A DNA stretch of 64,000 nucleotides, taken from sequence record OQ223305.1; one strand, given 5' to 3'. A program made the translations under genes and the position numbers. Positions 50,067 to 60,361 of the stretch are shown here, piece after piece. The notes beneath the pieces were generated by a model. It searched no databases and was not told where the DNA came from. It saw only the letters and a list, made by a program, of their open reading frames with translations. The stretch's first letter is position 1. Every line of letters begins with the position of its first letter. Origin of the DNA: Escherichia phage EO1.

Positions 50067-50324
50067 ATGAAAACTTTCAAAGAGTTTGCTACAAAAACTA
50101 CTATCACTGAATCTTCTCACGGTATGGAAGTAAAGCTTGGAATGGCTTTAGCTGAAGCTGAGCGTCTTTTCTCTCGTATTAAAGAACTTGCTGCTGCAGT
50201 CGATCCTTCATCTTTTAAAGGAGACCAAACTAAAGTTAAAGCACTTTTAGCGTTATGCTCCGATGCAGGAGAAATTGCTAAAAATGGTTCTAAGATGAAG
50301 AAACGATTAGAAGATTTAAAATAA
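50067..50324 (+). CDS. internal protein (IP) family member with capsid targeting sequence (ipI position)
   Basis: 85-aa ORF. N-terminus MKTFKEFATKTTITE-S resembles the recalled IP capsid-targeting consensus MKTYQEFIAE with an IxE cleavage motif. It sits next to 57B, where T4 ipI lies. Confidence 0.6.
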   Translation: MKTFKEFATKTTITESSHGMEVKLGMALAEAERLFSRIKELAAAVDPSSFKGDQTKVKALLALCSDAGEIAKNGSKMKKRLEDLK

Positions 50325-53701: not shown

Positions 53702-54175
53702 ATGAAATCATATACTCAATTTTTAAATGAAGCGGTGTTAAATGAAGCATCTAGCACCGAAATTCAAGCTGTCGCAAAAGCAGCCATTGCAGCGGGTAAA
53801 TATTCTTATAAAGATGCTTCTGATGAATCGCGATTCCAGTTCGCACGCGACATGAAAGCGGAAGGATTTACGGGAAATGCAGTTAGTATGGCCTGGAAAA
53901 GTTTAGTTGCTACTGGCGCTGCTTTTGCAAAGGCTTCGGGTAAACCTGCTCCTAAAGCAGATCCTAAAGCTGCACAAGAAAAAAATATTGTTAAAGGAAT
54001 TATCGCTAAATATGAAGCTATCCTTAAAGAGCTTTTAGTAATCAAAACCGAAGGCCAAAAGCTAGCTCGTGCTTATAGTTTCAAAGATAACCCACATGCT
54101 CATGACCTAGAGTATGTTGAAGATCTCCAAAAAATCATCAAAGACCGCATTTGGTCTGCTAAACAAATCAAATAA
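53702..54175 (+). CDS. internal protein (IP) family member with capsid targeting sequence; Ala/Lys-rich
   Basis: 157-aa ORF. N-terminus MKSYTQFLNE-A resembles the IP capsid-targeting consensus with an LxE cleavage motif. AGGA RBS. Bracketed by two copies of the same terminator. Confidence 0.55.
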   Translation: MKSYTQFLNEAVLNEASSTEIQAVAKAAIAAGKYSYKDASDESRFQFARDMKAEGFTGNAVSMAWKSLVATGAAFAKASGKPAPKADPKAAQEKNIVKGIIAKYEAILKELLVIKTEGQKLARAYSFKDNPHAHDLEYVEDLQKIIKDRIWSAKQIK

Positions 54176-56930: not shown

Positions 56931-57415
56931 TTTTAAAAACTCGCTGGTATGATTTAGATGACGGGGATGATGGCATTTCAGTTGATAGAGTTGACTGGAA
57001 TGGCTGTTCCGAAGATATGAAAAATTTGCTGATTAGGGAGTTTAGAATGGGATATCAACCAGTTAAGCCATCTACTGCAACAGATGATAAATTCGTGTGT
57101 ATTCATAATGGTCGCGCTAAATTAACGAACGCTGATTGGTTCACAGATAAAATTATGATTCTATGGTATATTATTAGTCTTCCTGTGACATCATTCGTAT
57201 TTTACTTTTTTATAAAAAATCCAATGGACAGAATAGGAGATTGGATTCTTTTAACCATACTTGTTAATATTTTTACTGCAGCAATATTATCTGGGATATG
57301 GTACACGTTCATTGAAATGCCATGGCGTTTACGCAGACAACAAAAGATTTTTGATGAAAAGAAATATACCCAAAATTTAAATAGCTTTATCACTGAATGC
57401 AGGAAATTAAAATGA
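56927..57415 (+). CDS. membrane protein, paralog family member
   Basis: 162 aa, two TM helices in the C-terminal half, tail ..FITECRKLK. ATGA overlaps with both neighbours. Confidence 0.45.
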   Translation: MILKTRWYDLDDGDDGISVDRVDWNGCSEDMKNLLIREFRMGYQPVKPSTATDDKFVCIHNGRAKLTNADWFTDKIMILWYIISLPVTSFVFYFFIKNPMDRIGDWILLTILVNIFTAAILSGIWYTFIEMPWRLRRQQKIFDEKKYTQNLNSFITECRKLK

Positions 57416-57852
57416 AAACATTATCAGCTGGTATTATCTTTATGACAGAAGATAAAGATTTATTTATGGGACGAGTTACTGGTTCTCGTAAGCCTGGAAT
57501 GATGGCACATCGCTGGGATATTCCAAAAGGTCGTGTAGAAAATTCTGATTTAAGCGCATTAGATGCAGCACGAAGAGAATGCTCAGAAGAGACTGGTTTT
57601 AACAATTATAATCCAGACCTTCTAGAAGACCTAGGTGTATTTAAATATTCTAGTAATAAAGACTTACAGTTATTTTATTATACGATTCCAGTAGAGCATG
57701 AGATGTTCAGAAATTGCCGTTGTGAGTCTTATTTTGAAAATAAAGATGGCGTTATGATTCCAGAGATGGATGCTTTTGCTCTTATTCCTCGTACTCAGTG
57801 GCAATATGTGATGGGTCCTTCACTTTACCGAATAATGAACAGCCTCTTTTAA
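57412..57852 (+). CDS. nudE: Nudix hydrolase NudE
   Basis: Nudix box GRVENSDLSALDAARRECSEETGF. ATG at 57412 with AGGAAA RBS is preferred over the track start at 57397. Lies just upstream of e, as in T4. Confidence 0.75.
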   Translation: MKTLSAGIIFMTEDKDLFMGRVTGSRKPGMMAHRWDIPKGRVENSDLSALDAARRECSEETGFNNYNPDLLEDLGVFKYSSNKDLQLFYYTIPVEHEMFRNCRCESYFENKDGVMIPEMDAFALIPRTQWQYVMGPSLYRIMNSLF

Positions 57853-58383
<531 letters not shown>

Positions 58384-58387
58384 AGTT

Positions 58388-58417
58388 GTTTACTTTCTCC
58401 TAGAATTGTGATAGTAT
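58388..58417 (+). promoter_or_regulatory. T4-type early promoter upstream of denV
   Basis: GTTTAC, then 18 nt, then TAGTAT with upstream TG, then GGAGGGA RBS. Confidence 0.55.
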
Positions 58418-58442
58418 ATTCACAGTTACTTGGAGGGATAAA

Positions 58443-58859
58443 ATGACTCGTATTAATTTGACTTTAGTATCTGAACTTGCTGATCAACATTTAATCGCAG
58501 AATACCGTGAATTGCCGCGTGTTTTTGGTATAGTTCGTAAGCATGTGGCAAACGGTAAGCGCGTTAAAGATTTTAAAATATCTTCTAAATTTATTTTAGG
58601 TTCTGGTCATGTTACGTTCTTTTATGATAAGTTAGAATTTTTGCGAAAGCGTCAATCGGACATTATAACGGAATGCTTAAAACGCGGGTTTAGTATAAAA
58701 GATACTGAAGTTCCTGACATCGGCGATATTCCAGCAGAATGGAAAAATGATTATAATCCATGCAAATCAGCTATTAAATTGAGTCAACAACGACTTGATG
58801 AAAAAATTTTAATGAAACCACATTGGTATAAGTATTACGGTAAAAATATTTACATTTAA
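58443..58859 (+). CDS. denV: endonuclease V (pyrimidine dimer DNA glycosylase)
   Basis: 138 aa. [36 protein letters not shown] matches recalled T4 endonuclease V. Confidence 0.9.
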
Positions 58860-58868
58860 AGGAAACCC

Positions 58869-59342
58869 ATGAAAACATATCAAGAATTTATTACTGAAGC
58901 AGCTATTAATTCTCAAATTATTGCTGAATCTTTTACTGATCTTTTGAAATTTAAAAAAGGTCAAAAAATCACTGCTGTATTGGATGATGGTACAGAAGTT
59001 GAGATGGATGTACAGGGATATAATTATGCAGTAGATGGAAAACTGTATAATAAATCTCATGCTAAATTTGATTCATTTGACGACTTTGTTAATACAGTTG
59101 AAGATGAAAAAACTCGTCGATCCATTGCAACTGGTGATGCTAAGGTTCTTATGGCACATGGTCATGAACGCATTCGCGCTAAACAGAATAAAATGGGTGA
59201 AGATAATTTTGCATTAGTTGGTTATCAATCTGGTAAACAAACTTATGGCTATCAACGTACTGCTACCATGTATAATAAAAATGGTAAAATCGCCTTTGTG
59301 AATAGCAAAGGTTCTGTTCAGTATGTCAAATCATTCAAATAA
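58869..59342 (+). CDS. internal protein (IP) family member with capsid targeting sequence
   Basis: 157 aa. N-terminus MKTYQEFITE-A is almost the canonical IP capsid-targeting sequence. AAAGGAAA RBS. Confidence 0.6.
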   Translation: MKTYQEFITEAAINSQIIAESFTDLLKFKKGQKITAVLDDGTEVEMDVQGYNYAVDGKLYNKSHAKFDSFDDFVNTVEDEKTRRSIATGDAKVLMAHGHERIRAKQNKMGEDNFALVGYQSGKQTYGYQRTATMYNKNGKIAFVNSKGSVQYVKSFK

Positions 59343-59371
59343 GCAAATAAGAAATATGGGAACAAGCTGGA

Positions 59372-59389
59372 CCTCATGATTCTATGAGG
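59372..59389 (+). other. RNA hairpin in the GC-richer IP / P-loop intergenic region
   Basis: CCTCAT-GATTCT-ATGAGG stem-loop with no U tract, in a 105-nt non-coding gap. Confidence 0.3.
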
Positions 59390-59447
59390 GATTCCCGCCA
59401 ACCTGTAATAAGGTCGAGCCCAAGTGCGGTAATGGGTAAATACAGAA

Positions 59448-60035
59448 ATGGAAAATTCATGCGCCATGGAATGGCCCAAATTTAGAGATAACAAAATGAG
59501 AACATTTTTAACTGGTCCTTATCTATCCCTGATGAATGCTTTTACACACCATTCTGATGCTAGAGTAGAAGAAATTTGTAAAAACGATTATATCCCACCA
59601 TTTGAAGACTTACTCAAGCAGTATTGCACACTTCGATTAGATGGTGGCAGACAATCCGGTAAATCAACTGCTGTGACTAACTTTGCTGCTAATTGGCTGT
59701 ATGATGGTGGAACAGTTATTGTTCTTTCTAATACTTCAGCTTACGCTAAAATTTCTGCAGGCCACATTAAAAAAGAATTTTCTCGTTATTCTGGCGATGA
59801 TATTCGATTCCGCTTATTTACCGATTCTGTCCGTAGTTTTATCGGTAATAAAGGAAGCAAGTTCAGAGGTTTATCGCTTTCACGAATTTTGTATATAATT
59901 GATGAGCCTGTTAAAGCTCCTGATATGGATAAAATTTACGATATTCATATTGAAACTGTACATTACTGTTGCAATAGTAAATGCTGCATTGGTGGTATTA
60001 CTCGTCCACAGTTTTTCATAATCGGAATGCAATGA
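59448..60035 (+). CDS. small P-loop NTPase (Walker A GGRQSGKST, Walker B ILYIIDE)
   Basis: 195-aa ORF. Start uncertain, with an alternative ATG at 59496. Walker motifs and spacing resemble a terminase-type ATPase core. Confidence 0.5.
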   Translation: MENSCAMEWPKFRDNKMRTFLTGPYLSLMNAFTHHSDARVEEICKNDYIPPFEDLLKQYCTLRLDGGRQSGKSTAVTNFAANWLYDGGTVIVLSNTSAYAKISAGHIKKEFSRYSGDDIRFRLFTDSVRSFIGNKGSKFRGLSLSRILYIIDEPVKAPDMDKIYDIHIETVHYCCNSKCCIGGITRPQFFIIGMQ

Positions 60036-60361
60036 TGACAGACACACAGCTTTTCGAATATCTTTATTTTTCGCCAAAAACTATTAAAAATAAATTGGTG
60101 AATCATTTTGAAATTTTGGCAAATAATAACGTCTTGAGCGAATTTTATCCTAAGCAATACAAATTACAAAAAGGCGTATTCAAAGGATGCAGAGTTTTGT
60201 GCACTGCTCCTAATGCAAGATTAATGAATAAAATTCCATATTTTACCATGGAATTTATTGATGGACCTTTTAAAGGACTAATCACCCAAAGTTTAATGGC
60301 ATATGATTCTGAGCCATTTTTAATTAAAGAACAGTCTTGGATAAATTTATTTTCTAATTGA
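60032..60361 (+). CDS. hypothetical protein
   Basis: ATG at 60032 overlaps the previous stop (ATGA). 109 aa. Track ORF from 59981 is an upstream extension. Confidence 0.45.
   Translation: MMTDTQLFEYLYFSPKTIKNKLVNHFEILANNNVLSEFYPKQYKLQKGVFKGCRVLCTAPNARLMNKIPYFTMEFIDGPFKGLITQSLMAYDSEPFLIKEQSWINLFSN

Follow-up and report, generated by a model that had tools for sequence, protein, structure and literature searches.

We analysed a 64,000-nucleotide (nt) stretch of Escherichia phage EO1 (record OQ223305.1; hereafter the window), focusing on the open reading frame (ORF) at positions 58869-59342 and on the interval between it and the downstream gene vs.8. We read the ORF as ip4, a gene for an internal protein (IP) packaged in the phage head, and the interval as the site of a conserved structured RNA element, and give this joint reading a probability of roughly 0.8. 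The gene is already known: it was named in the 1990s and is ordinary, because it occupies this position in hundreds of T4-like phages. The RNA in the gap, which is annotated as protein in T4, is the more interesting of the two.

A first-pass annotation of the window, made from the sequence alone, had placed a GC-rich, non-coding gap of 105 nt with a 6-bp hairpin behind the ORF. Calling the gap non-coding and noting the hairpin was sound but under-interpreted, as the gap holds a conserved structured RNA element; the hairpin (59372-59389, CCTCAT-GATTCT-ATGAGG) is present and constitutes helix P2 of the larger conserved structure. The excess in G+C is real, yet modest (44.8% for 59343-59447 versus 36.1% window-wide, with 7% of all 105-nt windows equally or more GC-rich). 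The length was mistaken: the end of ip4 is 153 nt from the real vs.8 ATG (59496), and the ATG at 59448, which had closed the 105-nt gap, opens an unconserved extension.

Conservation and structure of the RNA motif

The 153-nt gap (59343-59495) matched 1116 phage records by blastn. A 45-nt core (ACCTGTAATAAGGTCGAGCCNNAGYGCGGTAATGG) recurred at 86-95% identity in non-T4-like phages, including the Vequintavirinae (rV5-like), the 45-kb phage Ivi and others, and its copies in these unrelated phages always lay within unannotated intergenic DNA. The gap had no blastn match in 5,426 complete Escherichia coli genomes, so the motif is not host-derived and not carried on prophages. Many more copies came from pattern scans of IMG/VR, metagenomes and genomes. 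Across 34 sequences from T4-like, rV5-like and other phage contigs (alignment A2), 26 columns of the core are invariant, and the variable core positions are the loop of helix P4 and one G.U/G-C pair. The covariance model built for the motif (Table 1) also found copies outside its seed, namely tandem second copies (L069, L197, L199; L numbers are our handles for compared loci and contigs), and divergent members on a 360-kb jumbo-phage contig and on contigs of 25-117 kb. Some of these carry compensatory changes in helices P3 (GCCA/UGGU) and P4 (GUC/GAC), and an A.G mismatch in P4 is retained in several. Rfam 15 gave no match at E<=10 on the motif in the window or in six diverse motif loci, and a full-text search of a collection of papers did not find the core sequence.

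Seventeen matches from the pattern scans were discarded as GC-rich coding sequence (frames like ...KVEPPGGN...), that is, as chance or protein-motif matches. A 19-base core pattern also matches GC-rich coding sequence in contigs from soil and metagenome-assembled genomes (L034, L040, L043, L045, L047, L074 and others), and pattern-only searches for the core are thus prone to false matches in GC-rich genes.

RNAalifold, applied to a MAFFT alignment of 34 diverse copies, recovered helices P1, P3 and P4, with compensatory changes in all five P1 pairs. P3 is formed by ACCU/AGGU and P4 by CGAGC/GYGCG, the latter with an A.G mismatch and a variable loop, and the bulged G of helix Px is invariant. 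In this alignment 94.8% of the cells were paired, against 22-45% when the partners were slid by 1-3 columns, double changes occurred in eight pairs, and the covariation score was 0.404 compared with 0.174 after shuffling (0 of 500). The first nucleotides of the P1 loop complement the tail 2-12 nt past Px in every class, with differing sequences (CUG/CAG, GCCAG/CUGGU, CUCCGG/CCGGAG, CACAC/GUGUG, CGGUU/AGCCG and GAGG/CCUC). The summed score of this pseudoknot, each loop being paired with its own tail, was 193 versus 149 +/- 8 for shuffled tails (maximum 189 of 2000), and none of 20000 tail permutations reached it. The G.U pairs fit the + strand only, which identifies the sense (+) transcript as the functional strand. 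The helices are kept by compensatory substitutions, in divergent sequences and on one strand, and a functional structured RNA of ~100 nt at 59355-59455 is well supported. In the fold that we propose, the loop of the P1/P2 hairpin domain would form the pseudoknot with the 3' tail, and the domain would abut a three-way junction (Px, P3, P4) with its 26-nt invariant core.

Several points weigh against this reading. Across 58 distinct sequences 95.5% of the cells were paired, 11 of 17 pairs showed double changes and the covariation score was 0.536 compared with 0.169 after shuffling (0 of 500), but this alignment (A4) was fitted to the model, and several helices were first drawn by eye from the same sequences, both of which inflate the pair counts. 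P3 and most of P4 carry little covariation because they are invariant in most members. The pseudoknot of the window copy comprises only 3 bp, and single-sequence minimum-free-energy folding of that copy gave z = 0.10, which is no unusual stability and therefore no thermodynamic signal. The motif may already be an anonymous entry among the 8,495 candidate RNAs from IMG/VR in a 2023 catalogue (PMC10690425). For the protein, literature searches found no functional characterisation of Ip4.

In the T4 annotation the coding sequence (CDS) of vs.8 (L003, NC_000866 record 64253-64912, 219 aa) includes a 40-codon extension that spans the RNA motif. If the gap were coding, it could hold the real N-terminus of Vs.8, as this annotation has it, or else encode a micro-protein under conservation (...PVIRSSPSAV...). 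The frame is indeed open from this ATG into vs.8 in T4 and in L022, variable core positions partly fall at third codon positions (CCA/CCG/CCT, AGT/AGC), and PinkRuby, like some other genomes, has a separate 33-aa 'hypothetical protein' annotated over the motif. However, T4 and L022 are the only two of the 52 distinct variants tabulated in which the frame is continuous; the other 50 have no start codon or run into stops scattered 8-180 nt past the core, and copies of the rV5-like and Ivi types, as well as most of class D, have no start codon upstream at all. Between the two conserved blocks the lengths of indels are not divisible by three, and the reading frame there is not preserved across variants. 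The P4 loop and the G.U/G-C pair account for the variable core positions, and the flanking helices covary while their 'codons' change completely. In the window, the corresponding 33-codon ORF ends ahead of vs.8 and lies in a different frame. Coding by the gap is extremely unlikely on this evidence. A mini-ORF, GUG-CGG-UAA, was rejected by inspection, as its GUG reads GCG in a third of the copies.

The start of vs.8 itself fits a non-coding gap. The PHROG 1488 profile, which begins at MRTFL, matches residues 3-179 of the window protein with its positions 2-177, the window protein aligns to T4 Vs.8 from Met41 onwards, and the RefSeq CDS of phage teqdroes begins at the same ATG. T4 vs.8 is likely over-extended by 40 codons, its predicted start being Met41 (MRTFLTG). 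With the RNA motif recognised, the annotated vs.8 needs correcting, as do the 33-aa 'hypothetical proteins' called over the motif in newer genomes. Vs.8 of the window has 39% amino-acid identity to that of L010, with an identical RNA core upstream; neutral intergenic DNA would show the reverse, not an identical core beside so divergent a protein.

The conserved gap might instead act as DNA: as a recombination 'homology arm', a mobile regulatory cassette like the PeSL elements of RB49-type phages, or a homing-endonuclease target. The gap borders a hyperplastic locus in which the upstream neighbour varies (denV, ip4, IP99) and the motif and vs.8 are fixed, and T4-like genomes are known to exchange modules at intergenic motifs that are conserved (PMC2839356). 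Scanning of the gap found no sigma-70 promoter and no intrinsic terminator. The compensatory changes in four helices and the pseudoknot, as well as the strand-specific G.U pairs, point to RNA, and unrelated phages devoid of IP genes carry the motif too, in their tRNA clusters. We consider a role as DNA very unlikely. The mobile PeSL promoter/stem-loop cassettes of T4-type phages (Arbiol et al. 2010, PMC2839356; Comeau et al. 2014, PMC4122927) resemble the motif in being conserved intergenic elements at the edges of plastic clusters in T4-like phages. The motif differs from them in having neither promoter nor terminator, in its covarying pseudoknotted three-way junction and in its presence in unrelated phage families.

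Table 1. Coordinates of the RNA motif, genes and other features. Positions refer to the window unless a locus is named.
Feature	Position	Strand	Basis or remark
Pseudoknotted RNA motif	59355-59455	+	Covariance model R1, single window match, 103.6 bits, E=8.5e-26
Near-invariant core ACCTGTAATAAGGTCGAGCC-NNN-G-N-GCGGTAA-N-G (P3, P4, junction)	59401-59434	+	Alignment A2
P1	59358-62/59392-96	+	RNAalifold
P2 (hairpin of the first-pass annotation)	59372-77/59384-89	+	Inspection
Px	59397-400/59433 + 59435-37	+	Inspection; G59434 bulged; closes three-way junction
P3	59401-04/59411-14	+	RNAalifold
P4	59415-19/59424-28	+	RNAalifold
Pseudoknot	59367-69/59443-45	+	P1-loop/tail complementarity
T4-like-specific 3' block ATG-Y-GCCA-W-GGAA-Y-GGCCC	59459-59477	+	Class A and class B T4-like sequences
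33-codon ORF across RNA core (MRDSRQPVIRSSPSAV...)	59384-59485	+	Matches annotated first 40 codons of T4 vs.8; judged non-coding
vs.8 homologue (P-loop protein, 179 aa, MRTFLTG start)	59496-60035	+	PHROG 1488
ip4 (157 aa, ATG start)	58869-59342	+	Pfam DUF7412, PHROG 3155
Shine-Dalgarno sequence AAGGAAA	58859-65	+	Overlaps denV stop codon
Cassette head (Shine-Dalgarno sequence and 10 leader codons)	58859-58898	+	Leader codons 58869-98; aligns to T4 ipII/ipIII
denV (endonuclease V, pyrimidine-dimer glycosylase)	58443-58859	+	Pfam Pyr_excise
e (T4 lysozyme)	57889-58383	+	Pfam Phage_lysozyme
nudE	57397-57852	+	Upstream of e
157-aa ORF	53702-54175	+	Leader MKSYTQFLNE/AVLNE, L-x-E site; PHROG 2280 'unknown function'
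85-aa ORF	50067-50324	+	ipI locus after 57B; PHROG 3499 'internal head protein'
Tandem motif copies	L069 307-424, 443-536; L199 8965-9082, 9101-9194; L197 5189-5306, 5078-5171		Covariance model
TAGAGGGCTTGAWAGTGC copies	L007 1437-1460 (magaca); L044, L052, L053 downstream of motif

Genomic context and possible function of the RNA

In the T4-like loci examined, the motif immediately precedes vs.8, regardless of whether denV, ip4 or a 99-aa IP lies before it, at a distance of 20-45 nt from the ribosome-binding site (RBS) of vs.8. As the gap holds no sigma-70 promoter or intrinsic terminator, the motif would be co-transcribed with ip4 and vs.8. The T4-like-specific 3' block just upstream of the vs.8 RBS could form a small hairpin (59463-66/59472-75), in which no covariation was seen. 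Some T4-like contigs have two tandem motif copies upstream of vs.8, the second of which is divergent (40-48 bits) with a rearranged P4 hairpin.

Outside the T4-like phages no vs.8 homologue was found downstream of the motif, and a same-strand tRNA gene is present within ~1.2 kb, mostly within ~700 nt, at 22 of the 27 non-T4-like motif loci scanned. In the jumbo contig L087 a tRNA-Glu gene precedes the motif by 20 nt; in L180 and L177 the last tRNA lies ~100 nt before it, in L072 it comes directly behind a tRNA array, and in L050 and L200 it has tRNA genes on both sides. In rV5-like and 46-kb contigs, 340-700 nt separate it from the tRNA cluster. Phage Ivi and three other contigs had no tRNA gene in the sequence scanned; L044 is just a 2.4-kb contig. 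Some of the non-T4-like copies run antisense to the protein genes beside them or have a promoter behind them.

Two classes of these phages have further elements at the motif. In the 46-48-kb gut-metagenome contigs L035, L041, L059 and L070 an outer helix of 8 bp (GUUGUGAC/GUCACAAC) closes the motif, with one compensatory variant (GUUGUGAA/UUCACAAC), and in L035, L059 and L070 the motif is antisense to flanking structural-protein ORFs; the outer helix and the antisense placement suggest an independently folded, excised RNA. In rV5-like phages the motif is flanked by a second conserved sequence (TAGAGGGCTTGAWAGTGC), which one subgroup carries upstream of the motif and another on both sides of it. 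Its spacing is wrong for a sigma-70 promoter, and such a promoter for the rV5-like copies was rejected by inspection only.

The motif would work as an RNA, either as a small stable RNA cut from a transcript or as a cis-acting leader of vs.8. A leader, whether riboswitch or protein-binding operator, that controls vs.8 translation would account for the fixed position before the vs.8 RBS in the T4-like loci and for the tandem copies there, and aptamers typically have an invariant core within helices that covary. It is still rather unlikely, as the copies outside the T4-like phages have no vs.8 downstream, lie in tRNA clusters and can be antisense or promoter-followed, and no expression platform, be it a terminator or a helix that sequesters the Shine-Dalgarno sequence, is visible in the gap. 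Cleavage of early polycistronic or tRNA precursor transcripts, by the motif as a self-cleaving ribozyme or as a processing signal, would suit the compact pseudoknotted junction with its invariant nucleotides and its placement between genes and inside tRNA precursors. No Rfam ribozyme family matched at E<=10, the architecture is unlike the hammerhead, twister, pistol, hatchet and HDV cores as judged by inspection only, and we regard such an activity as unlikely.

We favour, tentatively and at somewhat less than even odds, a small stable RNA that is released from tRNA-type or early transcripts and whose invariant P3-P4-junction surface would bind or mimic a conserved host component; excision as a small stable RNA is suggested because the motif sits inside tRNA clusters in other phages. 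With nearly even odds, the motif represents a class of small phage RNA not described before, a pseudoknotted three-way junction of ~90-120 nt with a 26-nt invariant core, that occurs in T4-like, rV5-like, jumbo-phage and other phage contigs, as a rule lies within tRNA clusters and is processed together with the tRNAs, and is hidden in T4 inside the mis-extended vs.8 ORF. The core of such an RNA would bind, or imitate, some universally conserved part of the host's translation or RNA-processing machinery, or else be a new ribozyme or aptamer. It would in effect be a third 'stable RNA' of T4 that stayed hidden for decades. The near-100% conservation of the core between families that share no other DNA, together with the tie to tRNA clusters and the lack of an Rfam family, suggests a general RNA-level phage function, and the presence of the motif in T4, the best-studied phage, opens it to simple genetics.

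The core (59406-59436; GUAAYAAGGU, a hairpin and UGCGGU) appears to resemble the 3' minor domain of 16S rRNA in E. coli, where GUAACAAGGU at 1497-1506 is followed by helix 45 and CUGCGGU. This likeness and the link to tRNA clusters could hint that the core mimics a translation component. An anticodon-stem-loop mimic was rejected by inspection only. Among known stable RNAs, T4 rnaC and rnaD (the species 1 and 2 stable RNAs of the tRNA cluster) occupy the same kind of position as the motif does in non-T4-like phages, whereas in T4-like phages the motif is ~6 kb downstream of the tRNA cluster, before vs.8. Kinship with rnaC/rnaD was rejected, as their comparison with the motif revealed no sequence or structural similarity. 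ROOL and GOLLD RNAs are often phage-borne and located beside tRNA genes; they are 5-8 times larger than the motif, which had no Rfam match to either.

The ip4 gene and the exchange of IP cassettes

The window is a segment of a Tequatrovirus (T4-like) genome with the + strand gene order nudE, e, denV, ip4, the 153-nt interval, vs.8, vs.7 and further vs genes. The ip4 ATG follows the denV stop codon by 9 nt. The first-pass annotation had reported an ORF directly after denV with the N-terminus MKTYQEFITE/A, and both are present as claimed (MKTYQEFITEAA). Its assignment to the IP genes with a capsid-targeting sequence is borne out by the leader, the protease site and the family matches. The protein matches Pfam DUF7412 over its full length (318.5 bits versus a cut-off of 27, E=1e-95, profile positions 1-158 of 158) and PHROG 3155 'internal virion protein' (338.6 bits, E=1e-101).

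By tblastn, Ip4 was found in 470 phage records, 306 of them at >=95% identity (phages of Escherichia, Shigella, Yersinia and Citrobacter) and another 160 at 60-80% identity (T4-like phages of Klebsiella, Salmonella and Serratia). The homologue in RB14, named 'Ip4' in GenBank, is 99.4% identical to the window protein, and UniProt Q38388 'Ip4 [Enterobacteria phage K3]', the sole structural neighbour in BFVD, is 98% identical. RefSeq labels include ipIV, 'putative Ip4 internal head protein' and 'internal virion protein', with the note 'similar to T2 RB70 Ip4'. In a collection of 5.8 billion proteins the family comprised 14 clusters at 90% identity, each 61-99% identical to the query, and all clusters bearing a phage name came from enterobacterial phages. 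A profile search against PDB sequences gave no match. Ip4 is a narrow, phage-restricted family.

Megablast of 57800-60100 matched 833 phage records, of which 310 are colinear over >=80% of the stretch (e-denV-ip4-gap-vs.8, 2.3 kb); the closest of these is phage teqdroes with 97.9% identity. A novel, previously unseen IP in an arrangement peculiar to this phage, as the first-pass annotation implied, therefore receives next to no credence. T4 itself lacks Ip4, its e and denV genes being separated by ipIII and ipII, and the mature part of the protein is dissimilar to the T4 IPs. But Ip4 has already been named in K3, RB14 and RefSeq, it has its own Pfam and PHROG families, and the 310 colinear records refute an arrangement unique to EO1. 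The implied novelty fails because a named T-even IP with strong full-length identity (98-100% to Ip4 of K3 and RB14) is encoded at the same position in ~300 genomes. Compared with Ip4 of K3, RB14, RB32 and others (Q38388), the window copy is the same protein with the same leader and the same position after denV; it is off by at most a few residues, and we see no material difference.

The remodelling of the IP locus relative to T4, also proposed at first pass, holds, as does the dissimilarity of the mature part to T4 IPs. The T4 order is e-ipIII-ipII-denV-vs.8, that of the window e-denV-ip4-vs.8. In blastn alignments with T4, e and 49 nt downstream of it are kept at 96% identity, the 1.1 kb that carry T4 ipIII and ipII are absent from the window, and denV is 78.6% identical at the DNA level over its 5' two-thirds, with a divergent 3' end that remains unaligned. 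The window sequence at 58841-58900 matches the 5' ends of T4 ipII (93%) and ipIII (91%); only the RBS and leader codons of ip4 align to T4, and the rest of the gene has no T4 match. T4 homology restarts exactly at the T4 denV stop codon. The IP cassettes are swapped relative to T4.

Other phages have yet other orders. L010 has e-IP(132 aa)-denV-IP(99 aa)-RNA-vs.8, with a denV product 77% identical in amino acids to that of the window, and L025 has e-ipIII-like-IP(99 aa)-denV-RNA-vs.8, with the same 99-aa IP as L010 on the other side of denV. The order in PinkRuby is denV-IP(105 aa)-ip4. The 99-aa IP and Ip4 share only 11 leader residues. With its place in the e-denV-vs.8 interval, ip4 occupies one of two polymorphic IP loci (e/denV; 57B/tRNA). 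It is one cassette of a polymorphic IP array around denV, whose members we take to be exchanged among phages by recombination in a common 'head' of RBS and targeting sequence. Repoila and colleagues are said to have described modular shuffling of T-even IP genes at two polymorphic loci in 1994. The polymorphism of the IP loci in T-even phages is an established finding and not new. Silas et al. 2025 (PMC12373910) cite Repoila et al. 1994 for 'at least 10' Ips recognised by their signal sequence. As a known and widespread cassette of these loci, ip4 makes the protein part of our reading matter little.

Maturation and probable role of Ip4

The leader MKTYQEFITE is identical at 9 of 10 positions to that of T4 IPII/IPIII and is kept across the Ip4 family. 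It ends in a gp21-type site, I8-T9-E10/A11, whose E10 is invariant in 14 family members, and residues 18-20 form a candidate second cleavage site, IAE/S (I/L/M-x-E), whose E20 is invariant in the family. Cleavage at ITE/A would yield a predicted mature protein of 147 aa and 16.5 kDa with an isoelectric point (pI) of 9.1 (ProtParam); if the second site is counted, the predicted range is 137-147 aa and pI ~9.1-9.3. In the AlphaFold2 (AF2) model (mean predicted local distance difference test, pLDDT, 77.7; predicted template modelling score, pTM, 0.73), residues 10-18 are disordered and followed by a compact alpha/beta domain.

By the paradigm of T4 Ip1-3, MKTYQEFITE would direct the precursor into the prohead's scaffolding core, gp21 (the prohead protease) would cut after Glu10 (I-x-E/A) and perhaps again after the invariant Glu20, and the basic product of ~15.5-16.5 kDa would be packed with the DNA and co-injected. 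Ip4 would then neutralise a host defence at the moment of injection. T4 Ip1, Ip2 and Ip3 are mutually non-homologous, and Silas et al. 2025 (PMC12373910) show that each inhibits a GmrSD type IV restriction enzyme of its own; by analogy with these GmrSD blockers, Ip4 is probably an injected anti-defence protein. Ip4 and T4 IPI/IPII/IPIII have in common the MKTYQEFI-x-E leader, the I/L-x-E protease site and a small, non-essential-looking gene in the hyperplastic e/denV locus, and the same route of packaging, cleavage and injection is to be expected. They differ in that Thr9 of the Ip4 leader replaces Ala9 of T4 and in that the mature sequence and predicted fold of Ip4 are unrelated; no homology, in sequence or fold, to the mature domains of Ip1, Ip2 or Ip3 was detected. 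A full-text search pairing Ip4 with GmrSD or internal protein returned nothing relevant. With Ip1-3 assigned to GmrSD variants, Ip4 is a sensible next candidate among injected anti-defence proteins to pair with a host system.

The octamer TATAAGTA at 58827-58834, inside the 3' end of denV and 42 nt upstream of the ip4 ATG, agrees with the T4 late-promoter consensus TATAAATA at 7 of 8 positions and could be a late promoter for ip4 expression.

The first-pass annotation had called ip4 the second IP gene, which is fair, as two other ORFs of the window have N-termini like a targeting sequence (Table 1). The 85-aa ORF has an atypical leader (MKTFKEFATKTTITE/SS) without Glu at position 10, and its first I-x-E is at residues 13-15. 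The 157-aa ORF at 53702-54175 is located between the tRNA cluster and the e.x genes, and PHROG 2280, to which it belongs, is not an IP family; judged by its leader, it may be another protein that is packaged but lacks such an annotation.

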